From NCBI GenBank assembly GCA_951406725.2, contig OX597825.1, positions 15,748,001 through 15,812,000 of the forward strand: DNA of 64,000 nt, in the 5' to 3' direction. Origin of the DNA: Octopus vulgaris (Eukaryota). The position numbers and the translations under genes were made by a program. The notes beneath the pieces were generated by a model. It worked only from the letters and a program-made list of their open reading frames with translations, made no database searches and had not been told where the DNA came from. This document shows positions 5,093-49,386 of this stretch, one piece after another (position 1 is the first letter of the stretch; each line of letters opens with the position of its first letter).

Positions 5093-6125
5093 CCGCAGCT
5101 GTGACTGTGTGGCAAGAAGCTTACTTCCAACCCATAAGGCGGCGAGCTGGTAGAAACGTTAGCGCACCGGGCTAAATTCTAAACGGTATTTCGTCTGCCG
5201 CTACGTTCTGAGTTCAAATTCCCCCGAGGTCGACTTTGCCTTTCATCCTTTCGGGGTCGATTAAATAAGTACCAGTTACGCACTGGGGTCGGTATAATCG
5301 ACTTAATCCCTTTGTCTGTCCTTGTTTGTCCTCTCTGTGTTTAGCCCCTTGTGGGTAGTAAAGAAATAGGTATTTCGTCTGCGTTACGTTCTGAGTTCAA
5401 ATTCCGCCGAGGTCGACTTTGCCTTTCATCCTTTCGGGGTCGATTAAATAAGTACCAGTTACGCACTGGGTCGGTATAATCGACTTAATCCCTTTGTCTG
5501 TCCTTGTTTGTCCTCTCTGTGTTTAGCCCCTTGTGGGTAGTAAAGAAATAGGTATTTCGTCTGCGTTACGTTCTGAGTTCAAATTCCGCCGAGGTCGACT
5601 TTGCCTTTCATCCTTTCGGGGTCGATAAATTAGTACCAGTTGCGCACTGGGGTCGATATAATCGACTTAATACCTATGTCTGTCCTTGTTTGTCCCCTCT
5701 GTGTGTAGCCCCTTGGGTGCCGTAAAGAAATAAGAAGCTTACTTCCAACCCATATCGTACCACAAAGCTTTGTGTGTGGGTTTGGTAGACGGAAAATGAA
5801 TTACCTTCAGTTCCACCAACAGAAGAGCGGCGTTCATTGATCTGTTTTCCGTGGCACATAGTGCATCGGGGCCTTAAATTCATTGAACTCTTTCGACACA
5901 GTGTGTGTGTCTTTGTGTCTCTGTCTCCCACCACAGCGTGTCAACCGGTGTTGATGTGCTTACGTCCCGATAACTTGCGGTTCGTCAATAGGGACCGATA
6001 GAATAAGTACCAGGCCTAACAAGAAAATAAGTTTTGGGGTCGATTCTGTCGATTAAAACTTCTCCAAGACGGTGCCCCAGTATGGCCGCAATCCAGTGAC
6101 TGAGACAGGTAAAAGATAAAAGATA
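5093..6125 (+). mobile_element. Older SINE-B copy split by the SINE-A trimer
   Basis: Head at 5093-5136 resumes after 5754. Tail at 6070-6125. Confidence 0.75.
5137..5731 (+). mobile_element. SINE-A trimer with 23-bp TSD
   Basis: TSD AAGAAGCTTACTTCCAACCCATA at 5114-5136 and 5732-5754. Restart junctions at 5369/5370 and 5551/5552 (182-bp period). Confidence 0.92.
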
Positions 6126-6428: not shown

Positions 6429-6661
6429 TATTTCTTTACTACCCACAAGGGGATAAACACAGACAGGACAAACAAGGACAGACAAACGGATTAAGTCGAT
6501 TACATCGACCCCAGTGCGCGATTGGTACTTAATTTATCGACCCCGAAAGGATGAAAGGCAAAGTCGACCTCGGCGGAATTTGAACTCATAACGTAACGGC
6601 AGACGAAATACGGCCACGCACTTCGCCCGGCGTGCTAACGTTTCTGCCAGCTCGCCGCCTT
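6429..6661 (-). mobile_element. SINE-A monomer
   Basis: Full-length reverse-complement copy. Confidence 0.9.
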
Positions 6662-6910
6662 GTATATCAATATTCTAACACTCGAACCTTCTTGGTGGAT
6701 AGCACAAAGAAACAACATAAAAGATAAATCTTTCTTGCAGAAAATAATTAATCCTTTGATACTAGTCACCATTGCTGGGCTCAATTGGTGCAGGACGCAT
6801 GTGGCTTATGACACGGTATATTCATTGATATTACGTATCGTTTCAATATGTTTCACAAATATCGTGTTGTTCGTTTTTACACACCGATATTTCAGATAGC
6901 ACTTCGTTTG

Positions 6911-7344
6911 GGATCTTTTCGGTTTGAACGGCATTTTTTTTCTAGCGGTGTCATATGAAATTGTCACCCATAATTATGGCCCTAGTATCGATCTATTACA
7001 TTTCAATCTGTTTTACGGTTAGGGTTAGTTAGGGTTAGGGTTAGGGGTGGGGGAAAGGGTATCTTTTTTTCTTCACAAATGTAAATAAACCCGATCTGTT
7101 TCTTAAACGAGGGACATATTCATACGGCATAGAATGTTTTTTACCTCAATGGACGTCACTGATTGGTTGAAATTGCAGAAATTGAAGAAAAAAAACAACA
7201 AATATCTTACAAACTATAGAATTTTTTCAATAAAGCCAAGAGAAAAAGATGTTTTATAAACACATTCTACCAGTATGCGAAGTTTAAAATTTTTTAGTTA
7301 CCAAGAAATTATGTTAAAAACTGACGTTCAAACAGAAAAGATCC
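6911..7344 (+). mobile_element. MITE (Merlin-like) with internal TTAGGG repeats
   Basis: TIR GGATCTTTTCGGTTTGAACGGCA.../...ACGTTCAAACAGAAAAGATCC. 9-bp TSD CTTCGTTTG/CATCGTTTG. Three copies in the window. Confidence 0.85.
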
Positions 7345-8177
7345 CATCGTTTGCACTGAAGTCACTAAATGCTATTCTAAGCGTAGCTATCGGCTGTGCT
7401 GTGTCTGATGTATGTCTGCCGACTCATAACATTCTAGTGAGAACCAGACGCATACCACTCTTTAGCTGAACGTACATGTCCGTTGAAATTGCATGTATTC
7501 ATCTTGTAATGACGTTATCATCTGATAACTATATGTCTTATAATGTTGATATAATCTCAGGTTTGTGAGAAAACTGTTAAATAAGCAATCACAGCTAATC
7601 AAAAGTATTTCTTTTATCAGCACATCATCCTGGAATATTTTTGTTTGTTCTTTTTCGAACAAATGAGAAATATTCAAAGAAGCAATAATGGCATTTTTAG
7701 AATTCACTGCATTTCTGGATAAAACCAACTTCTGGATAGGAAAATATGATTTTAGTTGATTTATTTACTAGGATCTTATTTCAGCTTTAAGAAGGAGTGG
7801 GAATAGTATTTAAAAGGTATCTGATTAGATTGGACATGACACTCAATTTGTGTTTGCGTTTCTATATTTCAACAATGTCGCCACACATAAACACGCACAT
7901 CTCCAAGATCGATCGAAGAATTCAGCTTGCTCCCACATCAAATTAAAATCGCACGATTTTTTTTTTTCATTTTTCTTGAGCTGTTCATTTTGGGATTTAA
8001 AACAATCACAAAACAACGAAGTATCAGAAACCAAAACTCGGCAGATTTTAAGTATTGAGTATCACACAAAAGTGATAGGCCTCTGCTTTAATACTTCCGG
8101 CAACCAAAAAGAATGGTTTTGACAAAAGAACGTGAAAGATTTCCGAATAAAACTGAACACGTTTATACAATTATTAA

Positions 8178-9877: not shown

Positions 9878-10087
9878 GAACGCTACGGCCATTTTGGTAG
9901 AAGTCGATCTCTGAACGCTACGGCCATTTTGGTAGAAGTCGATCTCTGAACGCTACGGCCATTTTGGTAGAAGTCGATCTCTGAACGCTACGGCCATTTT
10001 GGTAGAAGTCGATCTCTGAACGCTACGGCCATTTTGGTAGAAGTCGATCTCTGAACGCTACGGCCATTTTAGTAGAAGTCGATCTCC
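9878..10087. repeat. Tandem repeat, 6 x 35 bp (GAACGCTACGGCCATTTTGGTAGAAGTCGATCTCT)
   Basis: Five identical units plus one with two substitutions. No spacers. Confidence 0.97.
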
Positions 10088-10594: not shown

Positions 10595-11156
10595 AAAATA
10601 CATATATATACTTATATAAAGATACATATGTATATGTGTGTGCATGTATGCACATATATATATATACATATATATATGCTTGTATGTATGCATACATATA
10701 TTCATCCGTATTTGCATCTATATACATACACACACATATACTTATACACATATAAATATATTCGTATGTATATGTACGCGTGTGTAAATATATGTGTCTG
10801 TGAGTTTAGTTGTTAACCTAATTTATTAATCAACTTTTATACCAATAAAAGTTACTATATAATTTATATATAAAGTTAATATATGTAATTTATCAATAAA
10901 ATTTAATGTGTAATTAATATATGAACTTTATTTATATGTACAGCGTGATATATACCAGAGCAGCAGACAACGGATTCTGCATAATACCTTATGGTGTTTC
11001 GTTGCGTATTCTACATTTTAAGTTCGATGTATGTCTTTCTTGTTTAGAAAAAGATCGCCAAAAGAACTATTAGTTACATATTGAGACGTGTGGGTCGACT
11101 ATTCTCTAAAAGATCCTAATGCAGTATGACTAAATACCAATGACTAAAGTCATTAC

Positions 11157-11573
11157 CTATTTCTTTACTACCCAAAGGGGCTAAACACAGAGAGGACAAA
11201 CAAGGACAGACAAATGGATTAAGTCGATTATATCGACCCCAGTGCGTAATTGGTACTTAATTTATCGACCTCGAAAGGATGACAGGCAAAGTCGACCTTG
11301 GCAGGATTTGAACTCAGAACGTAACGGCAGACGAAATACCTATTTCTTTATTACCCACAAGGGGCTAAACATAGAAGGGACAAACAAGGACAGACATAGG
11401 TATTAAGTCGATTACTTCGACCCCAGTGCGTAACTGGTACTTAATTTATCGACCCCGAAAGGATGAAAGGCAAAGTCGACCTCGGCGGAATTTGAACTCA
11501 CAACGTAACGACAGACGAAATACCGCTGAGCATTTCGCCCGGCGTGCTAACGTTTCTGCCAGCTCGCCGCCTT
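11157..11573 (-). mobile_element. SINE-A dimer
   Basis: Same restart junction (AAATAC|CTATTTC on +) at 11339/11340. Confidence 0.9.
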
Positions 11574-11949
11574 ATAGTCAATACCGCGCGCACTCGAACG
11601 TGTATGTGTGTTTGTGTGTGTGTATGTATGTGTGTGTGTCTGTGCGTGTGTGTAAGTGTGTTCATGGTTTACGTGTTCAAATCTGCTTCTAGTTTCTCTA
11701 CAAATTTCTTGATAGAGAGCGCCATGCATTTCCGTCGGTATTTTCATTTTGAAACTAACGGCTCCAATAAAATTCTCAGATATGCCGTATGAAAATAACC
11801 AGTTCTTGTATCAACTATTTCATTTATGCTTCAGAAGATCGCTGTGTTCACCTATTTCATATGTAATGAAGATCGCTTCTGTGATTATTATTATTATTAC
11901 ATTATAAGACGGACTCTAAATCTGATCCATCAAAATACCGACTTATTCC

Positions 11950-16218: not shown

Positions 16219-16788
16219 ACGAGCGTCAACGAAAAAATAATTCCAGATAAACACTGTAGATTAATCTGATTAGATGCAAAACGAATTATATACAAAACAA
16301 ATAAACCACGATGATGATGATGATGATGATTGTTATTATAAGAGCATTAATGACGACTACGACGATGATGACGATGATGATGATGATGTCATACCTACAG
16401 GTATTTACGTGAGCATATGCGTTCGCTGTGTATACATATACATGTATCTTTATGTGTGGGTGTTTGCGAGTGTACGTACATGTATGACAATATGACAGCA
16501 TGTATGTATGTAGGCGTTGCGTGCATACTCACGCGCATATTTCATTTTCGATGAAAAGTTTATTAAATCAAGAAATTATGAAAATTATGTTTTATCAGTG
16601 AAACTAAATTATACTATTTAGCTATTACTTGCATTTTAATATTAACTTTTTGTGCACAATCGATTGGCAATCTTATTCTGAACGTCAATAGAATTGTTCT
16701 GAACAGTCAAAGTTTGTCTCCCAACGAACTCATAAAAAGTAATTTATATATGATCTTTAAGGGTCAACTATGACAATTTTATACAAGC

Positions 16789-17806
16789 AAGACACTTTAT
16801 TATTACTCAATGAAGTAATCGCTAACTTATCTAATATATACACCAAGTAAAATAACTTTAATTAATTTAGTTCCTACTTGCATTGAGGAACCATAGATAC
16901 TGGATCGATGCTGAAATCTACCCAAGTCATGCAAGTGCAATGCCTCAAAGCTTCAGATATTGGAGACGGTTGGCACCATAGAAATTTCAATTAATTCTTA
17001 TTTCTTTATTGCCCACAAGGGGCTAAACATAGAGGGGACAAACAAGGACAGACAAACGGATTAAGTCGATTATATCGACCCCAGTGCGAAACTGGTACTT
17101 TATTTATCGACCCCGAAAGGACGAAAGGCAAAGTCGACCTCGACGGAAGTTGAACTAAGAACGTAACGACAGACGAAATGCCTATTTCTTTACTACCCAC
17201 AAGGGGCTAAACACAGAGGGGACAAACAAGTACAGACAAACGGATTAAGTCGATTACATCGACCCCAGTGCGTCACTGGTACTTAATTTATTGACCCCGA
17301 AAGGATAAAAGGCAAATTCGACCTCGGCGGAATTTGAACTCAGAACGTAACGGCAGACGAAATACCTATTTCTTTACTACCCACAAAGGGCTAAACATAG
17401 AGGGGACAAACAAGGACAGACAAACGGATTAAGTCGATTATATCGACCCCAGTGCGAAACTGGTACTTAATTTATCGACCCCGAAAGGATGAAAGGCAAA
17501 GTCGACCTCGGCGGAAATTGAACTCAGAACGCAGCGGCGGACGAAATACCACTAAGCATTTCGCCCGGCCCGCTAACGTGTCTGCCAGCTCGCCGCCTTA
17601 AAGACACTATATTATAACTCAGTGAAGTAATCGCTAACTTATCTAATATATACACCAAATAAAATAACCTTAATTAATCTAGTTGCTACTTGCATTGAGG
17701 AGCGATAGATACTGTATCGATGCTGAAATTTACCCAAATCATGAAAGTGCAATGCCTCGAAGCTTCAGATATTGGAAACGGTTGGCACCACAGAAATTTC
17801 AATTCT
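16789..17806. repeat. About 205-bp direct repeat (16789-16997 and 17600-17806) flanking a SINE-A trimer
   Basis: AAGACACT...GTTGGCACCA(T/C)AGAAATTTCAATT occurs twice, roughly 90% identical by eye. Confidence 0.92.
16998..17599 (-). mobile_element. SINE-A trimer
   Basis: Restart junctions at 17181/17182 and 17365/17366. Confidence 0.92.
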
Positions 17807-17902
17807 TTCTTTCCGCTATTCGGGTACAAAGCACGAAATTTTACTGAGTAAAAAGAATTGATTTCATCGACTCCAGTGCTCGACTGGTATTTATTTTATC
17901 GA

Positions 17903-18385
17903 AAGGCGGCGAGCTGGCAGAAACGTTAGCACGCCGGGCAAAATGCTTAGCGGTATTTCGTCTGCCGTTACGTTCTGAGTTCAAATTCCGCTGAGGTCGA
18001 CTTTGCCTTTCATCCTTTCGGGGTCGATAAATTAAGTACCAGTTACGCACTGGGGTCGATGTAATCAACTTAATCCGTTTGTCTGTCCTTGTTTGTCCTC
18101 TCTGTGTTTAGCCCCTTGTGGGTAGTAAAGAAATAGGTATTTATTTTATCGAAAGGCGGCGAGCTGGCAGAAACGTTAGCACGCCGGGCAAAATGCTTAG
18201 CGGTATTTCGTCTGCCGTTACGTTCTGAGTTCAAATTCCGCCGAGGTCGACTTTGCCTTTCATCCTCTCGGGGTCGATAAATTAAGTACCAGTTACGCAC
18301 TGGGGTCGATGTAATCGACTTAATCCGTTTGTCTGTTCTTGTTTGTCCCCTCTGTGTTTAGCCCCTTGTGGGTAGTAAAGAAATA
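17903..18385 (+). mobile_element. Two full-length SINE-A copies at one site inside an antisense older SINE-A (about 17810-18525)
   Basis: 17-bp target GGTATTTATTTTATCGA occurs three times (17886, 18136, 18386), 250-bp period. The host element resumes at 18403. Confidence 0.92.
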
Positions 18386-18650
18386 GGTATTTATTTTATC
18401 GACACCGAAACGATGAAAGGCAAAGTCGACCTCGACTGAAATTGAACTCACAACGCAAAACTGGAAGACATGCCGCTAGGAAGTTTTGTCCATCACACTA
18501 ACATTTCTACCAGGCAACCATCTTTGCAATTTTAATTGATTAAAATTCCTATACTTCTGCACAGCAATATGCAAAAGAGGACGTGATAGTAAGATAAGGA
18601 ACGAAGAAAATTATATTTCTTAATCTTATAGTTATTATCTTATAGTATGG

Positions 18651-19077
18651 GGATCTTTTCGGTTTGAACGGCAGTTTTAACATAATTTCTAGGTAACTAA
18701 AAAATTTTAAACTTCGCATACTGGTAGAATGTGTTTATAAAACATCTTTTTCTCTTGGCTTTATTGAGAAGATTCTTATAGTTTGGAAGATATTTGTTGT
18801 TTGTTTTCTTCAATTTCTGCAATTTCAACCAATCAATGACCGTCTATTGGGGTGAAAATATTTTGTGCCGTATGAATATGTCCCTCGTTTAAGAAACAGA
18901 TCGGGTTTATTTACATTTCTGAAGAAAAAAAGATAACCTTCCCCCCACCCCTAACCCTAACTAAGCCTAACCCTAAAATAGATTGAAATGCAATAGATCG
19001 ATACTAGGGTCATAATTATGGGTGACAAATTCATATGACACCGCTAGAAAAAACTGCCGTTCAAACCGAAAAGATCC
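18651..19077 (-). mobile_element. MITE (Merlin-like), second copy
   Basis: Same TIRs. 9-bp TSD ATAGTATGG/ATAGTATTG. Internal (CCCTAA)n. Confidence 0.88.
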
Positions 19078-21320: not shown

Positions 21321-22707
21321 TCACGTATATTTATTTCTTGCCAAAGTGGAGACGTTTATTAGAGTGTCGCATAGAATTCCTTGTGGGATTTTTTCTTTTA
21401 CGTTCTGAGTTCAAGTACCGCTGGGTCTCCACTTTGCTTCTCACCACCTTAAATGGAGGCAATACTGGAGTCGGTATAATTGGTCTTACTTCGTCCAAAA
21501 TGAAACGCCGAATGTTCCATCATTTTCTGCACTAATGAATCCAGTGTGTGTTATGAACCCGCATTCGTCGTAAAGAAGTGGTTCTCCAGTGACAAAACAC
21601 ATCAGCAATTAATATCTTCATGTTTGATTCTGCCAGAACGTTTAAAGAATAATAGTTCACCAGACATCGTTCTGATTTCATACTGTTTCGGTTTTTAAAA
21701 TAGTGTACAACTACAAAAGATGAAGTAAAATAACCAGTTTCATAACAAGTTAATAAAAATAAGAAAATGTTTCTGGCGTAAAATTACAACTGAAGATTTT
21801 AATTTTAAATAAGATCACATTAAAACAGACTGTTTCGTACCATACAACCAAAGATGATGTCAGGTGGATTTGTATGAAGAGGGTTAAAGAGAAAAAGCAT
21901 AAAGAGAAGTATGGAAAGAAACAGTGGATTTCAGCTGCTGAGTTGCCATGATTTTGTTCAGCCGCCATATTTTTTAAAGTATTATAGATTCTATAGACAC
22001 AATTATTTAATTTGGTCTCTCTCTATTTTCTTTCCCTGGAACTCTTGACGTCTGCTATCTTACTAAATTGAAAATATCTACTTCTGTCTTGTGTTAAACA
22101 CATCGAGACTGGTGAGGGGGGGCTCACGGTGTAGCATAACCATTCGACCATGCTCTGAACATTTCTATGGAGTAAATTAAGCGCTTTATTATATACTGCA
22201 GGAGCTATTTTAGATATGATTGATAGATCAAGATATTTTCGTTGTTTTGTTGTCATTTTTGTTTCTATTGTTGTATTCTTCTTCCTCTTACTTTTCTTAT
22301 TTGTATTTTACTTGTTATTGTAGTTTTTGTTTTGTTGCTAGCTGTTTTTAATAATGATTTCTACCATCCGGTTTAAATAAATGCGACTGATAAAAACCAA
22401 CCGTGGTTAAATTCTCCTTAGCTCGCATTATTATTTCAGACAGTCAAAAGTTTATAAAGGTTACCAACCACACACATACACAGAGACTGCAGGCCAGAGA
22501 AATTTTTATTAAACAGCTTGGAAATCTTTACTTGTACAGGATATGAGTGGTTGAACTTTGAATGGTGATGTATTTTTCATGTAAGATTTTAACATTTATT
22601 ACATTATCCTCATTGGTTGGTTTTTCGGTTTCACTACAGTTTCCTGGTTGGAACATTTCTTCGTGGCCCATCACCCATACTTGATTATTGTATTCGTCTA
22701 AATCGAA

Positions 22708-23517
<810 letters not shown>

Positions 23518-26399: not shown

Positions 26400-27550
26400 G
26401 CGTTGTGAGTTCAAATTTCGTCGAGGTCGACTTAGTCTTTTATCCTTTCGTGGTCGATGAAATAATGTACCAGTTAAGCACTTGTAATCGACTTACCCCA
26501 ACCCTTGAAATTGCTGGCCTTGTGCCAGAATTTGAACCCATTGTTATTTACCAACTCAGAAGGCGAGCTGGCGGAATCGTAAGCAGAATCGTAACCACTA
26601 GGCCACGAACCACGCACCTTCTCAGCGGTTAATATTATTGGGAGTCTGTAAGACAACGAGCTGGCAGAATTGTTAGCAAGCCGGAAAAAGCGCTTTGCAA
26701 CATTTCGTCCGTCTTTCAGTTCTGAGTTCAAATTCAGCCGAGGTTGATTTTACGTTTTTATCCTTTTGGGATCGATAAAATAAGTATCAGTTGAGCGCTG
26801 ATGTCGATGTAATTAACTTACCCCCGTCCTAAAAATTGCTGGCTTTGTGCCAAAATTTGAAGTTAATATTATTTGTCACATAAGGGGGCGAGCTGGCGGA
26901 ATTGTTAGCAGAATCGGAACGACTGGGCCACGCGCCTTCTTAGCAGTTAATATTACTGCAGCCTGTAAGACGAGAAACTGGCAGAATCGTTAACACGCCG
27001 GACCATAATGCTTCGCGGCATTTCATCTGTCTTTACGTTCTGAGTTCAAATTCAGCCGATGTCGACTTTGCCTTTCATCCTTTCGGGGTCGATTAAATAA
27101 GTACCAGTTACGCACTGAGGTCGATAGAATCGACCTAATCCGTTTGTCTGTCCTTGTTTGTCCTCTCTGTGTTTAGCCCCTTGTGGGTAGTAAAGAAATA
27201 GGCATTTCGTCTGTCTTTAATTTCTGAGTTCAAAATTCAGCCGATGTCGACTTTGCCTTTCATCCTTTCGGTGTCGATTAAATAAGTACCAGTTACGCAC
27301 TGGAGACGATGTAATCGACTTAATACCTATGTCTGTCCTTGTTTGTCCTCTCTGTGTTTAGCCCCTTGTGGGTAGTAAAGAAATAGGCATTCCGTCTGTC
27401 TTTACTTTCTGAGTTCAAATTCAGCCGATGTCGAATTTGCCTTTTTTTCCTTTCGTGGTCGATAAAATAGGTATCAGTTGGACACTGGGGTCGAGCCCAT
27501 CGACTTATCTCTTCCTCTAAATTTGCTGGTCTTGTACCAAAATTTAGAAC
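26400..27550 (+). mobile_element. Compound SINE-A array
   Basis: A2 copies separated by an approximately 90-bp duplicated spacer (26556-26649 and 26876-26965), then a trimer with junctions at 27201/27202 and 27386/27387 ending in an A2 tail. Confidence 0.85.
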
Positions 27551-28047
27551 TTATATTCTTCGCCACCAAAAGAAAAGTTATTTGTTGTGTGATTGGAGGG
27601 AATTGATGTGACCAACGCGTCACTTATTTTAAGTAATTAAACAAAACAGCGTACAGAACCTCGTGATATGACTCCAGCGTTGAAGAACAATCCCAAACGT
27701 AGAGTATCGCAACAGAAGTGAAGTGAGCGTGTTTCTCCTCTATTCTTCTACTCCACAAGTACTCACGATACCTGTTATTAATGATAATTATCTTAGATTA
27801 CAGCTATTCTGTATCGGTTTACTGCTAAAATAGTTAACGATCCACTTAATGGGTTCATTAAAAACGCCAACTAATTTTATTTACGAAAACCAAAACTGAA
27901 AACAGAATAATTAAACAAAATGTTCAAAACGAGAAGTTTTCGAAAATTGTTGGTCATTAAATTGTCGAAGAGAGATTCTTCTGAGTGGGAGGTCAGGTGA
28001 GTCAACAGATTCTGAGGCTGGTTATTTGGTTAGGTTGTTTAAATGAA

Positions 28048-28707
28048 ACATCATCGTTATCATCATCATCAACGTCATCATAATCGTCATCATCGTCATC
28101 AACATCATCATCGTCATCAACATCATCGTCATCAGTATCATCATTATCATCGTGAATGTCATTATGATCGCCATTATCATCATGATCGTCATTATCATCA
28201 TCATTGTTGTTATCATCATTATCAACATCATCACCATCGTCACTATCATCGTCATCATCGTCGCCGTCGTCGAGATAATAATAATCATCATCACCATCAT
28301 CATCATCATCGTCGTCATTATTATCAAACATCATCACCATCATCATCGTCATCGTTTTCATTACCGTCGTCATCGTCACCGTCGCCATCGACTTCATCGT
28401 CAACATCATCATCATTATCATCACCAACACTACAACCACCACTACCATCACCACCACAACCATCACCGTCGTCATTTTCATCATCCTTATCATAGTGATA
28501 GCTGCTACTATCATACCGCCAGCCATCATCATTAGCTGCATCATCATCATACAACGTTATCATCATCATCATCATCCTTATCATCATCATTATCGTCGTC
28601 ATCATAATCATCATCTTTATCATCATACAGCATCATCATCATCATTATAATCATCATCATCATCGTCATCATCATTATCCTCACCATCATCATTGTCGTC
28701 ATCATCG

Positions 28708-29321: not shown

Positions 29322-30369
29322 CAGCAGTAGTTTAGGTTGTTTAAATGAAATATCATCATTATCATCATCATCGTCGTCGTCATTATCATTATTGTCATCA
29401 TTATCGTTATCATCATTATGTAGTAGTGGTAGTAGTAGTAGTGGTATTAGTAGTAGTGGTAGTAGTAGTGGTAGTAGTAGTAGTAGTAGTAGTAGTTTTT
29501 TCTAATTGGAATGGTATTTTCGTTTCTTTGTCTTGCTCATACGAAGCTCTTCACTGTCTTTATCTGTAAGAATAGACAGACAGACAGACAGATAGATAGA
29601 TAGGTATGTATGTATATATGTATATATATATATATGTATACACATATATATATATATGTATGTATATATGTATATATATATATATATACACATATATATA
29701 TATATGTATGTATATATACACATATATATATATATATATGTATGTATATATACACATATGTGTATGTATATATATATGTATATATATATGTGTGTGTGTG
29801 TGTGTGTATACATATATATATGTATGTAAATATATATGTAAAGAAAACATTTGTAGAAGGTGTCATGTAGTGGGGCTGAATCCGGAGCCATGTGCAAGCT
29901 TCTTACCACACAGCCCCGCCTGCGACTGTTTATTTTTTTAAAACTTTGTAGGGTAGGTGTGAGAAGCCGGATCTCGCCAGGTTGAACATAAAACAAGCAA
30001 AATATTTTGGCCAGATACGGCTGGTTTAAATTCTAAACGGTTAAATTTTCCGATTCAGACACTCCCACTTTTCATATTTCCATAATACCGCAATAGCATA
30101 ACTCTTTTTCTTTTCTTTCTTTTTTAGCCCTAGGCATCATAAGGCTGGAGCTTCACTTGGTTTCCAGATGTTGCAATACCGGTCCGTCACAAGGTTATGT
30201 TCCCAGCTATTGCTAGAACACATTTGCAGTGAAATAGAGGGACGGGAAATGGAATGTTTTACTAAAGAACACAACGCACCACCCTATCCGGGTTTAGAAA
30301 CCTCGACCTTTCGTTCATGAATGCAACACCCTAACCACAAAACCACGCGCTTACACCGTGTCATAATTA

Positions 30370-33745: not shown

Positions 33746-36702
33746 ATGTAGGAGGGCTGCTGCGCGGAAACTGTAAAAAAGAAAATTTCATTCCTGAGAG
33801 ACCTTGTGACATGCAATCAAGCTATATGCATGGCACTCACAGAAACGCATCTTGAACCCGATATAGGTGATGCAGAAATACACATGCCGCAATATGCAGT
33901 CATACGCACAGATAGAAAAGGGAGGAGCCATGGTGGAGTTGCAATGTACATCCGAGATGACCTCACGCCCCAGGTCCTGCTGTCATATTCAAACTCAGTA
34001 TGTGAAACTCAAATTGTACACATAAGACAACTGAATATCGTCATATGCACTACATATCGCCCACCAGACGCCCCAAAACACTCAGGCATGTTTGAAGACT
34101 GCCTAACAAAAATAGGAGAAGTCCTCACCAACCTTGAACAGCACAACAGTGTATTCTTCATGGGTGACTTTAACCTCCCCAATGTGGAATGGCCTGGGGG
34201 GCAGATGCTCCCAGGGATGACACACCATCAGCAGGCACAGGTGGAGTCCCTGCTCCATCTCACAAATACCTCTTTCATGGAGCAAATAGTTCTGCAACCA
34301 ACAAGGGCAGATAATATACTGGATCTCTGCTTTACAAACAATATGGATATTATCCATAATGTTAATGTGATGCCGACAATGATCTCGGATCACAACATAA
34401 TAGAGCTGTCTACGTATGGAACAAAAGCCCCCGCAGACACACAGCCTATACGAAGCACCCACCATCTCTCCAACTTAAACTTTCATAAAGCCAACTGGAA
34501 GTCGATTGAGAAAGAGATCCTCAAACAGGATTGGCCTGAATGTCTCTCCACACCGGACATAAACATGAAACACAAACACTTCATGTCCATAATACAAGCC
34601 ATATGTGACAAATATGTCCCAATGTGCAGGGCCAGCACACACAAGAATAAAAACAGGATCCCTAGAGAAAGGAGGATTCTTATGAGACGACGGACAAGGA
34701 TTGCAAACCGCCTGAGCAAGCACACCAAAAGTGGTGAGAAGTCTCGGCTCGAAAGAATGCTAATGGAAACTGAGAAAAGTCTACATCAGTCCCATGAAAA
34801 GGAGAGAGCAGATAAAGAAGCTTGGGTAATAGAAAATATAAAATCAAACCCTAAAGCTTTCTTTAAGTTTGCCAAAGAGACAGCCACAGTGCACCAGAGA
34901 ATAGGACCTCTCTTCCAAAAAGATGGCTCTCTCACAGGAAATCCCACGAGGATAAGTGAAATACTGAACGAACAGTTCCAAAGTGTATTCACTACACCTC
35001 TAGGACACAGGCAAGTAAACAACCCAGAAGAATTCTTTGCCACTTTACCAGCGGCCAAAGAGACAAAAATTGAGTACATCAACATCGAAGAAGATGATAT
35101 CACACTAGCCATTGATGAGATTGACACAAACTCAGCTGCTGGACCTGATGGATTCCCAGCGATCCTTCTCAAATCGTGCAAACGAGCCCTTGCAAAACCG
35201 CTACAGCTTCTTTTTCAGAGCTTTCTTGCAAGTGGTAAGCTCCCAGTCAAACTGAAAGAGGGGGTAATATGCCCTATCCATAAGGGAGGTAGCAGAGCAG
35301 ATGCTAAAAATTATAGGCCTATCTCTCTGACCTCACACATCAGCAAAGTCATGGAACGAATAGTCCGTAAGAAACTAATCATGTTCCTTGAAGAAAATGA
35401 CTTGCTGTCTGACACCCAGCATGGATTTCGACCAGGTAGAGGCTGCCTAACACAGCTCCTGCAACACTATGACTGGGTGTTGAAACAGCTACTAAATGGC
35501 TCAAATGTGGATGTAATATATCTTGACTTTGCAAAAGCCTTTGATAAAGTCGACCATAGTATGATCTGTCACAAACTGCGTGGTCTCGGCATAGGCGGGA
35601 AACTTGGAGAGTGGCTGCACAACTTCCTAAAAGACAGAAAACAGGCAGTTGTGAGCAATGGAGCCACCTCCAGGGAAACGCAAATAACAAGCGGTGTCCC
35701 ACAGGGCACTGTCTTGGGGCCACTGATGTTCATAGTGGCCCTTTCAGACATGCCTTCAGTTGCTACGATGACCACCCTTGCTAGCTATGCAGATGACACA
35801 AAGGTCTCCCACGCAATACAGAACCCTGAAAATATTGCGCATCTGCAACATGAGCTGGACACAATATACAGGTGGGCTGAGGACAACAACATGCAGTTTA
35901 ATGCAGGTAAGTTCCAGGCCCTGCGCTACTGGCACACAAAGGTAAATGACGTGAAGACTGGATACACTGGCCCAGGAAGAATTGCAATCCCTGAGTCAAA
36001 ATCAGTGCGTGACCTGGGCATTGACATGAGCAATGATGCATCTTTCCAAATGCATATTGCTAATCTGGTGATAAAATGCAGACGGCTAGCTGGATGGATT
36101 CTCCGAACTTTCAGAACAAGAGAGAAGGAGACACTGATGGTCCTATGGAAAACATTTGTCCTCAGCCGCTTGGACTACTGCTCCCAACTTTGGTCACCAC
36201 ACAATATAAAACAAACAGCAGAACTCGAAGCAACTCAGAGAAGCTACACAAAGAAAATCGTCTCAATGCAAAATGTCAGCTACTGGGAAAGACTGAAGGT
36301 ATTAAACCTCTTCTCCCTGGAGCGGAGGCGGGAGAGATATGCAGTAATATACATCTGGAAAATCCTGGAGGGTCTTGTCCCAAACTTTGGCATTCAAAGT
36401 TACTCCAACCGCAGAACGGGCGCCGCTGCGTGGTGCCAAGGATTCCAACATCACCATCAAAATACAGGTCCAGATACTGCAACAGCTTGGGTTTCAGAGG
36501 ACCACAGCTTTTCAACATCCTCCCTAAATGCCTGAGAGACTTACATGGTGTGGATGTGGGTTTCTTTAAAACTAAACTGGATCTCTTCTTGTTGGGAGTC
36601 CCAGATGAACCTACCTCACGACAGGAGACACGGATGCGGGCAGCAGCATCGAACTCCCTTGTTGATCAAGTGCCACGTATCAGAGGTGGATTCACAAACT
36701 AG
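33691..36702 (+). CDS. LINE ORF2: apurinic endonuclease plus reverse transcriptase (two 1-bp shifts, at about 33775 and 36420)
   Basis: APE motifs [36 protein letters not shown] motifs NYRPISLTS, QHGFR, YLDFAKAFDKV, GVPQGTVLGP, YADD. CR1-type C-terminus SRLDYCSQLWSP and LERRRERY. Confidence 0.95.
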
Positions 36703-39437: not shown

Positions 39438-39666
39438 AGGCAGCAGGCTGGCAGAAACGTTAGCACGTCGGGCGAAATGCGTAGCCGTATTTCGTCTGCC
39501 GTTAAGTGTTCTGGGTTCAAATTCCGCCGAGGTCGACTTTGCCTTTCATCCTTTCGGGGTCGATAAATTAAGTACCAGTTACGCACTGGGGTCGATGTAA
39601 TCGACTTAATCCCTTTGTCTGTCCTTGTTTGTCCCCTCTATGTTTAGCCCCTTGTGGGTAGTAAAG

Positions 39667-45563: not shown

Positions 45564-46328
45564 CAGGTGGAGATTAATCATCCCCAGCTGATTTGCAGGT
45601 TATAAGAATTGCACTACGGGTCGTAATGTTACGGTATGTGGTAAAATACTCCGTATAGCTACCGAAAACTACGGCTTTCTCGGCAGATTTCCAAGCTGTT
45701 AGAATAATCATTTAATACAGGCTACACATATCGAACAAGTGAAATCCTAGTTTCTAATGCCAGACATTTCGTAATTATTCTAGGAATGAACTGTTTCAAA
45801 TAATGGACAAAATTAATTATTCTATTATAAAAGGTTGACCAGATCCGCCTTTAGCACTTTTTTTTCCTATTGACTAGTGTTTACATGCAATCTTGTGATA
45901 ATAGAGGAAGTTGTTAGCAAAGATTCCCAAGCTTTGCTGAGTTTTGCAGTATGAATGTAATTATTTCTATCCTGTATTCACTCGCCGTTTTATATTGGAA
46001 AAAGCCTTCAGCGTAAACTTTATTCGGTGAAATGTTGGATTAATTGTGATTGTTAAAATGCGTAAGCCAAACAATTCAGAATGGATCGTTTGCTTTAGAA
46101 TTGAACGGTTCAATACCAGCTGCAGCTTCTCAATTCCCTTTCACTAATAGTAACATGGGCTTTAAGTCCTTTAATCGTTCTCTTACAGTTGAAACTCAAG
46201 AGAATTTGAACGCTTTGGGAATTATAAAACTATCAACGAAAAGATACGAAATTATCTCTGGACATACGACTTACCTTTTATTTCTTTTCTTGTTCCAGCC
46301 GTTGGACTGTAACCATGCTGGGGTATTG

Positions 46329-46759
46329 GGATCTTTTCGGTTTGAACGGCAGTTTTTTTTTAATAATTTCCACGTAACTAAACACTTTTAAACTTCGTAT
46401 ACTGGTAGATTGTGTTTATAAAACATCTTTTTCTCTTGGCTTTATTGAGAAAAGGCTATAGTTTTTAAGATATTTGTTGTTGTTTTTTTCTTCAACTTCT
46501 GCAATTTTAACCAATTAATGACATCTATTGAGATGAAAACATTCTGTGCTGTATGAATATGTCCCTCGTTTAAGAAACAGATTGGGTTTATTTACATTTC
46601 TGAAGAAAAAAAGATACCCTTTCCCCCACCCCTAACCCTAACCCTAACCCTAACCCTGAAACAGATTGATATGCAATAGATCGATACTAGGGTCATAATT
46701 ATGGGTGACAATTTCATATGACACCGCTAGAAAAACTGCCGTTCAAACCGAAAAGATCC
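46329..46759 (-). mobile_element. MITE (Merlin-like), third copy, nested in a minus-strand SINE-B (about 46280-47145)
   Basis: Perfect 8-bp TSD GGGTATTG (46321-8, 46760-7). Perfect TIRs. (CCCTAA)4. Confidence 0.92.
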
Positions 46760-47963: not shown

Positions 47964-48520
47964 CGCATATATATATGTGTACTTCCGGTTTCGTTGCGGA
48001 AACGCGGGCTTTTCGTGCTCCTGAAACAACCAAGAGAGATTCCCTAATTCGTCAAAAAATCTACTAAAACTGACGAAAAACAAACGTAGTACTTATTATC
48101 TCATAACGGCCTACTATAATATATTAGTAAAAAAAAATTTAATAAATTGCACTAGAAGTTCAATATATTACATTAAAATCAGTGACGCAGGCCAGAGTTG
48201 TCCTCGGAGAAAGCACGTGTTGATAAATCGTACTTTCATTAGTGGCCGTGTGTAAAGAGTAATTGATTTTTCTTTGAAACAAAACCGCTTCCTACAAGAA
48301 CAAGGATTGGAAATTTACCTCTTGGGAATAAGTATCCAATTCATTTTGTTGTTTATTTTGTTTTATCTTGGGTAATACTGGATAAAAATTTGAGTTAAGA
48401 CGTATTGTTTGTTTACATTCTATTCGAAAACTTACGGTAGCAAATACGAAACCTCTTCTTCTTTTCATTATCATTTTTCATTTAACATTTTCTTACAACG
48501 ACCTCGTCGTTTATATTCTA

Positions 48521-48914
48521 CTAGCAGTATCGCCCGGCGTTGCTCGGGTTTGTAAGGGAAATAACTATATAAGCATTTTTAGAGAGTTATAGCCAAAAAA
48601 TAGCAAAAAAATGCATTAAAATGGGAAAAAAATTATGGTAAATTTTTTTTAAATCGTTGACTCATCGTAGACATTTTTAGAGAGTTACTTCCCTTATATA
48701 ATAGCGAAAAAATGCATTAAAATGGAAAAAAATTATGGTAATTTTTTTTTAAATCATAGACTCATCGTAGACGCGCGCTAATACCCAGAAGGGCTCGATA
48801 TGAATCACGACTATAAGATACCTGGTTTTGGTTAAACTGCACCGCAAAATGTGGGAGTAGTTAGGAATCTAAATCGTAGGAGACAGACACAAACCTCTCC
48901 TTTATATATAAAGA
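48521..48914 (-). mobile_element. Non-autonomous Helitron
   Basis: On the minus strand 5'-TC...CTAG-3', inserted between A and T with no TSD. Subterminal hairpin CCCGAGCAACGCCGGG. Internal ~100-bp tandem duplication. Confidence 0.85.
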
Positions 48915-48999
48915 TTTGAAAAATTTACGGTAGCAAATTCGTAACGAAACCTCTTTCTTTTCACTATCGGTTTTCCACTTTATCTTTCTTCTTACAGCG

Positions 49000-49386
49000 G
49001 CCCCCTCACTCTATACCTTTCGTTTTTCTCTTTCCTTCATATCTTCGTCACCTGATCTTCCTCTCTCTCTTTCACACCTTCCCCGTCCTCTCTCCTCTCT
49101 CCTTCCCTTTCATATCTTCCTTCTTTTCCCACGTTTCTCTCCCTCCCTTTGTCTCTCTTTACACTTACCTCTCTCCCTCTCTCTTTCATACCTTCCTCGT
49201 TTTCTCACCCTTCTCCTTCATTCTGTTTCTCCCTTCCTTTCATATCTTCCTCCTTGTCCCGCTTCACTCTCCCTCCATTTGCCTCTCTCTCTCTACATCT
49301 ACCTCTCTCTCTCTTTTTCATACCTTCTTTTTCTCTCCTTTCCCTCACTCAAATCTTCCTCCTTTTCCCACTTCTCTCTCCTTTCT

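Follow-up and report, generated by a model that had tools for sequence, protein, structure and literature searches.

The stretch of DNA analysed here (64 kb, hereafter the window) is AT-rich, rich in microsatellites and of animal type. It contains 11 young loci of the SINE family under study, present as monomers, dimers and trimers on either strand, as well as older, more diverged SINE relatives, and copies of the focal family are frequently nested inside the older ones. The 11 young loci, found on both strands, resemble SINE2-type elements in being short, non-coding and interspersed with variable target-site duplications (TSDs). Multimers were identified at 496-915, 5136-5736, 11154-11573, 16993-17599 and 26967-27507; each is made up of a single head followed by 184-bp units, which all restart near position 51, and the last unit of the 5136 trimer and of the trimer at 16993-17599 carries a distinct end variant. 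The unit structure and the end variant suggest that the source genes may themselves be multimeric and give RNAs with ends at unit junctions. A/B-box-like motifs were read by eye in the SINE head against a consensus, while ARAGORN reported 0 tRNA genes in the SINE. The Rfam gathering scan of the whole window gave 0 matches and the E-value scan of 16500-18700 only two at chance level, far under the cut-off and neither relevant, and the idea that the SINE holds a ribozyme or other structured RNA was rejected for want of support in both scans. The fold of the SINE monomer has a z-score of -2.9. We also noted a 9-mer common to two otherwise unrelated SINE loci (6662-6690 and 11574-11600, minus strand), which ends 17 nt upstream of the head and is probably a chance match, or possibly a host repeat that the two sites have in common.

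At the focal locus a three-unit SINE on the minus strand lies between two direct copies of a sequence of about 205 bp and adjoins a copy at either end. In SINE sense the array consists of a full-length unit with the head (unit 1, 17361-17599, minus), an internal 184-bp unit (unit 2, 17177-17366, minus) and a terminal 184-bp unit (unit 3, 16993-17182, minus) with the variant end it has in common with copies 3637 and 5551, so that in the so-called trimer one unit has the head and the two others, of 184 bp each, lack the first ~50 nt. Local alignment paired 16789-16999 with 17601-17811 over 211 nt without a gap; identity is 91.5% and the blastn E-value inside the window 4e-84. The same pair also came up as window repeat family D10. 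The core of the repeat, 16789-16992 and 17601-17804, is a gapless direct repeat of 204 nt. Its 16 substitutions, of which 10 are transitions and 6 transversions (7.8% divergence), are uniformly placed (KS p=0.98); if a 4-nt slip at 16993-16996 is allowed, the repeat gains 3 nt and extends to 16999/17807. The repeat is real and lies far above chance. The original prediction had placed a unique sequence at 16789-16997 and again at 17600-17806, abutting the ends of the SINE trimer; these coordinates are correct within a few bases, and the sequence is indeed unique as judged inside the 64-kb window alone, where no third copy was found and the next-best match covers 19 nt (E=0.13). Beyond the window, two motif scans of genome contigs and a blastn of 16789-17811 against plasmids and phages gave no match, which is to be expected of prokaryotic collections. 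The duplicated DNA has a GC content of 34% and folds in no unusual way (z=-0.01), and a coding role was rejected, all six frames giving short open stretches with stops; it is non-coding and shows no sign of function. An older ~250-bp tandem further upstream, hinted at by a 20-nt match at 16616, was likewise discarded, this being the sole match (E=1.6-1.9).

In a repeat-rich region such as this one, an assembly artefact that put two alleles or overlapping reads in tandem has to be weighed. It is the least credible of the readings discussed here, since the divergence of the two copies is made up of substitutions throughout, uniform and transition-biased, as mutations accumulating with time would leave them and a mis-join would not, and the junctions are precise to the SINE ends.

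The SINE head starts at 17599 (minus), one base off the right copy of the repeat (17601-17807), which in SINE sense is the duplicated target before the head, or 5' TSD. The left copy, with the 204-nt core at 16789-16992, is the duplicated target after the SINE 3' end, or 3' TSD, and is overlapped by that end by about 5 nt, the same overlap as in the sister copy 5136 with its 22-bp TSD. At this 3' junction (16993-16999, minus) the terminal AAGAA of the SINE coincides with the start of the target, a microhomology accompanied by the slippage duplication of 4 nt at 16993-16996: read in SINE sense the repeat begins with AAGAA and then slips by 4 nt, and within the duplicated unit AAGAA occurs at offsets 0 and 4 only. 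Among 19 SINE units AAGAA follows all three with the terminal-variant end (3637, 5551 and focal unit 3) and none of the 16 others. The perfect 22-bp TSD of the 5136 trimer likewise starts with this AAGAA, which argues that the end of the RNA equals the start of the target, as expected if short pairing primes. No SINE was found at the outer end of the left repeat copy, and unequal crossover between SINEs was rejected as the source of the repeat on this ground.

Between the repeat and the SINE head no ordinary TSD is nested, which is weaker evidence than it appears because 5 of the 11 young loci lack a convincing TSD anyway. This bears on a history in which the 205 bp were already duplicated in tandem before the SINE inserted, bluntly, where the two copies meet. 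A junction of this kind would read AAGAA, a likely priming sequence, and the loci without a convincing short TSD also speak for such an order of events; if AAGAA-like ends are preferred targets, the chance of striking a pre-existing duplication junction would rise, and local duplications without the focal SINE do occur elsewhere in the window (22706/23435 and 48427/48920). We nevertheless regard it as unlikely, as it demands a rare duplication, a strike within ~1 nt of the junction and an absent TSD all at once, and among the 15 low-copy repeat pairs listed by a whole-window scan there is no other long tandem of unique DNA, barring a 35-bp array and a 100-bp pair within an element.

The AAGAA at the start of the duplicated target also belongs to the tail of an older, related SINE, which runs in the same direction as the focal one and whose 3' part (17797-17902, minus) enters the first bases of the target; its scores of 45-70 against 8/8 older copies compare with shuffle maxima of 29-35. 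The 5' part of this older SINE is found at 18403-18513 (minus), parted from the 3' part by an insertion at 17886-18402 (plus) with the arrangement target-SINE-target-SINE-target. This insertion of the focal family within the older SINE, with a 17-bp target, provides a neighbouring internal control. Its two full SINE copies are 98% identical and the 17-bp target is present three times, which would fit either a second insertion at the 3' end of the first copy or a tandem duplication via the TSD.

Each copy of the ~205-bp repeat thus comes after the 3' end of a SINE, and both SINEs point the same way, as would be the case if the 205 bp were a piece of the mobile unit, a 3' extension or transduction in the old and the young SINE alike, and the repeat simply two adjacent elements. 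We give this reading very little credence: no other SINE copy in the window has this sequence behind it, and the old and young SINEs are 78-81% identical as against 92% for the repeat copies. The older tail might also have acted as a template. An insertion with a short TSD would then have been followed by copying of the 205 bp through two template switches, from the SINE tail to the older SINE tail and back through the short TSD, or, in a variant, the reverse transcriptase would have copied a local transcript first. Consistent with this, the duplicated unit begins in the older SINE tail, whose end resembles that of the young SINE, and 3 mismatches fall in the 21 nt beside the head compared with 13 in the remaining 183 nt; the excess is however not significant (p=0.22), the mismatches are uniform along the repeat, and two precise switches are required, all of which makes it improbable.

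The age of the repeat was compared with that of the SINE. The repeat copies correspond to 3.9% change per copy (95% CI 2.3-6.3), while locus-private changes in the trimer amount to 15/587 or 2.6% (CI 1.4-4.2), with no significant difference between the two (Fisher p=0.27); likewise, the trimer units differ pairwise by 7.4-10.0% and the repeat copies by 7.8%. A count of all differences from the family majority (44/619, 7.1%) makes the SINE appear the older of the two (p=0.007 and p=0.04 in two tests); this percentage is inflated by subfamily variants, which occupy 38 of 239 columns, so that the age test brackets only and leaves simultaneity unproven. The ages are compatible, with the 3.9% of the repeat lying between the lower (2.6%) and upper (7.1%) estimates for the SINE. 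For the prior tandem duplication it may be said that 3.9% is nominally above 2.6%, a gap which is not significant, and for the template switches that the repeat is the younger by the upper-bound estimate, whereas the private-change estimate gives no younger repeat.

We then asked how long TSDs are across the family, using a TSD caller that allowed repeats up to 600 bp with 14 end definitions at all 11 young loci. A long flanking repeat was present at 1 of the 11, the focal locus. Locus 5136 has a TSD with 22/22 matches and the pair 17903/18153 one with 17/17 matches, present three times; 10/12 matches were obtained at 11154 (score 15) and at 6429 (score 14), and at 39438 a 16-bp TSD lies within a TA microsatellite and is uninformative. 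The caller returned no short TSD at loci 131, 3637, 26967 and 41841 and a chance-level match at locus 496. A composite at 384-915 also seems to have a ~18-bp repeat at its bounds. As a null, 110 mismatched flank pairs were scored: 105 pairs had a score of 0 and a single pair attained the maximum of 14, so that no pair came to 15. By this measure the TSDs of 22 and 17 bp stand firm, the one at 11154 is probable and the one at 6429 marginal. The family tally is thus two loci with clear TSDs (17 and 22 bp), three with weaker ones (12-16 bp), five with none convincing and one with a long TSD. As to the older SINE copies, four were checked over 600-bp flanks and all were covered by whole-window scans, the caller being applied to the young loci. 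These scans revealed no other long unique repeat abutting a member of the focal SINE family, and a flank scan of 68 repeat segments flagged two, both of them low-complexity microsatellite; the latter scan could not flag the focal locus, which had been merged into one segment. Within the 11 loci the long TSD is therefore a one-off outlier in a family whose TSDs are normally short, and the claim that insertions of this SINE as a family duplicate long host DNA is not supported, with 10 of 11 loci lacking a long repeat and the TSDs seen there measuring 12-22 bp.

The ~205-bp repeat is most likely the TSD of this very SINE insertion, for which the 3' junction signature, the lack of a nested short TSD and the compatible age speak together. 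On the same grounds one half of the model first put forward for the locus is retained, namely that the SINE insertion made the repeat; the other half, a wide stagger common to the family, is not supported by the count of 1 in 11. We put the probability at roughly three in four that an ordinary TPRT insertion of a three-unit SINE RNA was completed at a distant second-strand break. A preformed trimer RNA would have been inserted by TPRT with some LINE enzyme. The first nick would have fallen in the tail of the older SINE, at the AAGAA where 17601-17807 starts in SINE sense, and this AAGAA, which visibly overlaps the SINE end, would have paired with the 3' end of the RNA and served as the priming site. 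Reverse transcription presumably ran through the entire array up to the head, in keeping with its full length. The second strand would then have been opened about 205 bp off instead of 12-22 bp, by an unrelated nick or at an end left by replication or repair, as we infer from human L1, and fill-in would have left the 205 bp on either side, after which the copies could drift to the observed 7.8% divergence. The anatomy of the junctions is what can be read directly in the DNA; where the nicks fell and what made the second break are reconstructed from it and from the L1 case. For L1, TSDs of >100 bp make up ≤10% of events in HeLa cells and the majority (57-91%) in NER-deficient lines, for which a second nick, distal and unrelated, or an end from replication or repair has been proposed (PMC5223499).

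The enzyme initially suspected was of the RTE type, with a second cut habitually ~200 bp from the first. The one clear long TSD at the focal locus agrees with such a habit, and the central domain of the focal SINE may be akin to RTE-associated SINE cores. In Octopus, moreover, an RTE LINE is described as transcribed and potentially active (PMC9115989). The supplements of that paper that were searched contained neither the SINE motifs nor the sequence of this LINE. Against an RTE-type habit stand the remaining young loci, with TSDs of 12-22 bp or none, and the published RTE record. TSDs of the RTE clade measure 7-15 bp with a peak at 10-12 bp (PMC6007223 and PMC4245944), to be set against 12, 12, 16, 17, 22 and ~205 bp in the focal family. 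For C. elegans RTE-1 perfect repeats of 10-49 bp are listed in 30 of 53 copies, in a survey blind to repeats longer than 49 bp (Table 1 of PMC6007223), and further reports give ~17 bp for an RTE-type hagfish SINE (PMC7245038), 10-12 bp for SR3 (PMC1291365) and 20 bp for HmRTE-e01 (PMC2887409). Given this peak and the RTE-1 count, long TSDs are not supported as a trait of the RTE clade. The RTE target signature Tn-TA, in which a T stretch lies ~10 nt upstream of the TSD start (PMC13295347), was clear by eye at 0 of 6 sites, a small sample in which the TSD starts are blurred by microhomology. The single long TSD among 11 loci and the short RTE TSDs in the literature give no support to widely staggered cleavage as the rule for this family, and we consider a habitual second cut at ~200 bp very improbable.

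The window holds one clear LINE frame, an open frame of 927 aa at 33752-36535 (plus) with a non-LTR endonuclease and a reverse transcriptase, the nearest named relative of which is from Argonauta hians (57% identity; three other matches are closer). The host is therefore likely an octopod. The frame was rejected as partner of the SINE, as the two have no sequence in common (score 22 compared with a shuffle maximum of 25).

That a minority of non-LTR retrotransposition events leave long TSDs is known, and the focal case adds a single instance. Youngman et al. reportedly described in 1996 one copy of C. elegans Rte-1, at prk-1, with a direct repeat of ~200 bp; this resembles our locus in being a natural non-LTR insertion with a repeat of that length. 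Gladyshev and Arkhipova are said to have reported in 2009 a rotifer non-LTR element, R9, with an 'exceptionally long' TSD in the words of the title. R9 is specific to rDNA, and a long TSD is, going by that title, a property of its family, whereas such a habit, with long TSDs at most copies, was not found for the focal SINE (1 of 11 loci). Rte-1 differs from the focal SINE in being an autonomous LINE, and as a family RTE-1 is not marked by long TSDs, to judge from the copies tabulated in PMC6007223. Also close are the de novo human L1 insertions with TSDs of >100 bp (PMC5223499, PMC2912911 and PMC4245944), which have the target repeat at both ends and a normal-looking 3' junction and, like the focal case, are outnumbered by insertions with short TSDs; PMC5223499 lists examples of 242, 275 and 277 bp. 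These human cases stem from engineered L1 elements in cell culture, often in lines deficient in repair, whereas the focal insertion is old, natural and in an invertebrate. The focal insert is also a full-length, trans-mobilised SINE multimer, whereas the extreme TSDs in HeLa cells go with 5'-truncated L1 (cited in Kojima 2010).

Among cephalopod elements, octopus tRNA-derived SINEs were reportedly described by Ohshima and Okada in 1994, with OR1 mentioned in PMC4824008. These and the Ceph-SINEs (PMC5786205) resemble the focal family in high copy number, in the probable octopod host and perhaps in a tRNA-like head. The focal core motif was not found in the Ceph-SINE supplement by an exact-word search of its PDF alignments, which is an insensitive method, and the SepiaSINE consensus given there looks different by eye. 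We found no report of a long TSD at a cephalopod SINE in a literature search with poor coverage of subscription journals; PMC4408412 and PMC4758252 likewise contained nothing on the subject.

The focal event is a natural and clean case of a rarity that was already known. In the preferred reading, completion of an ordinary TPRT insertion at a distant break, it would mean that a trans-mobilised full-length SINE can finish in this way in the germ line, the second break being the part taken from analogy. How frequent long TSDs are in nature is poorly measured, because surveys with a length cap, at 10-49 bp (PMC6007223 and PMC13295347) or 5-30 bp (PMC2912911), are blind to such events. One long TSD in 11 loci is compatible with a bimodal TSD distribution, in which a main peak at 12-22 bp would be joined by a genuine one at about 200 bp whose position reflects the spacing of nucleosomes or Okazaki fragments, the second strand being primed from a replication end; we think this doubtful. 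A discrete genome-wide peak of long TSDs would, if true, bear on the question of what opens the second strand when non-LTR elements insert. The bimodal distribution itself would be a natural read-out of second-strand opening in TPRT and, if several per cent of this abundant family were affected, would keep supplying octopod genomes with ~200-bp tandem duplications.

Several other repeats were noticed in the window. At 22706-22787 and 23435-23517, 52 nt of unique sequence (50/52 identical) together with TA repeats flank a TA-rich array of ~650 bp; this pair is possibly another long target duplication, or else a tandem duplication followed by microsatellite expansion. A repeat of ~80 nt with 78% identity (48427-48503 and 48920-49002) surrounds an element of ~420 bp with an internal 100-bp tandem pair, and the ends of this element (48427-49002) may resemble those of Helentron-associated elements. 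A unique sequence of about 20 nt, together with a CAT microsatellite, occurs twice at a distance of 1.3 kb (28030-28117 and 29332-29416). An element of ~437 bp is present in three copies that are 90-92% identical (6911-7346, 18645-19077 and 46323-46759); it has inverted-repeat-like ends and internal telomere-like hexamer repeats and is MITE-like in appearance. Finally, a 35-bp unit repeated six times with 99% identity at 9878-10086 forms a young minisatellite.
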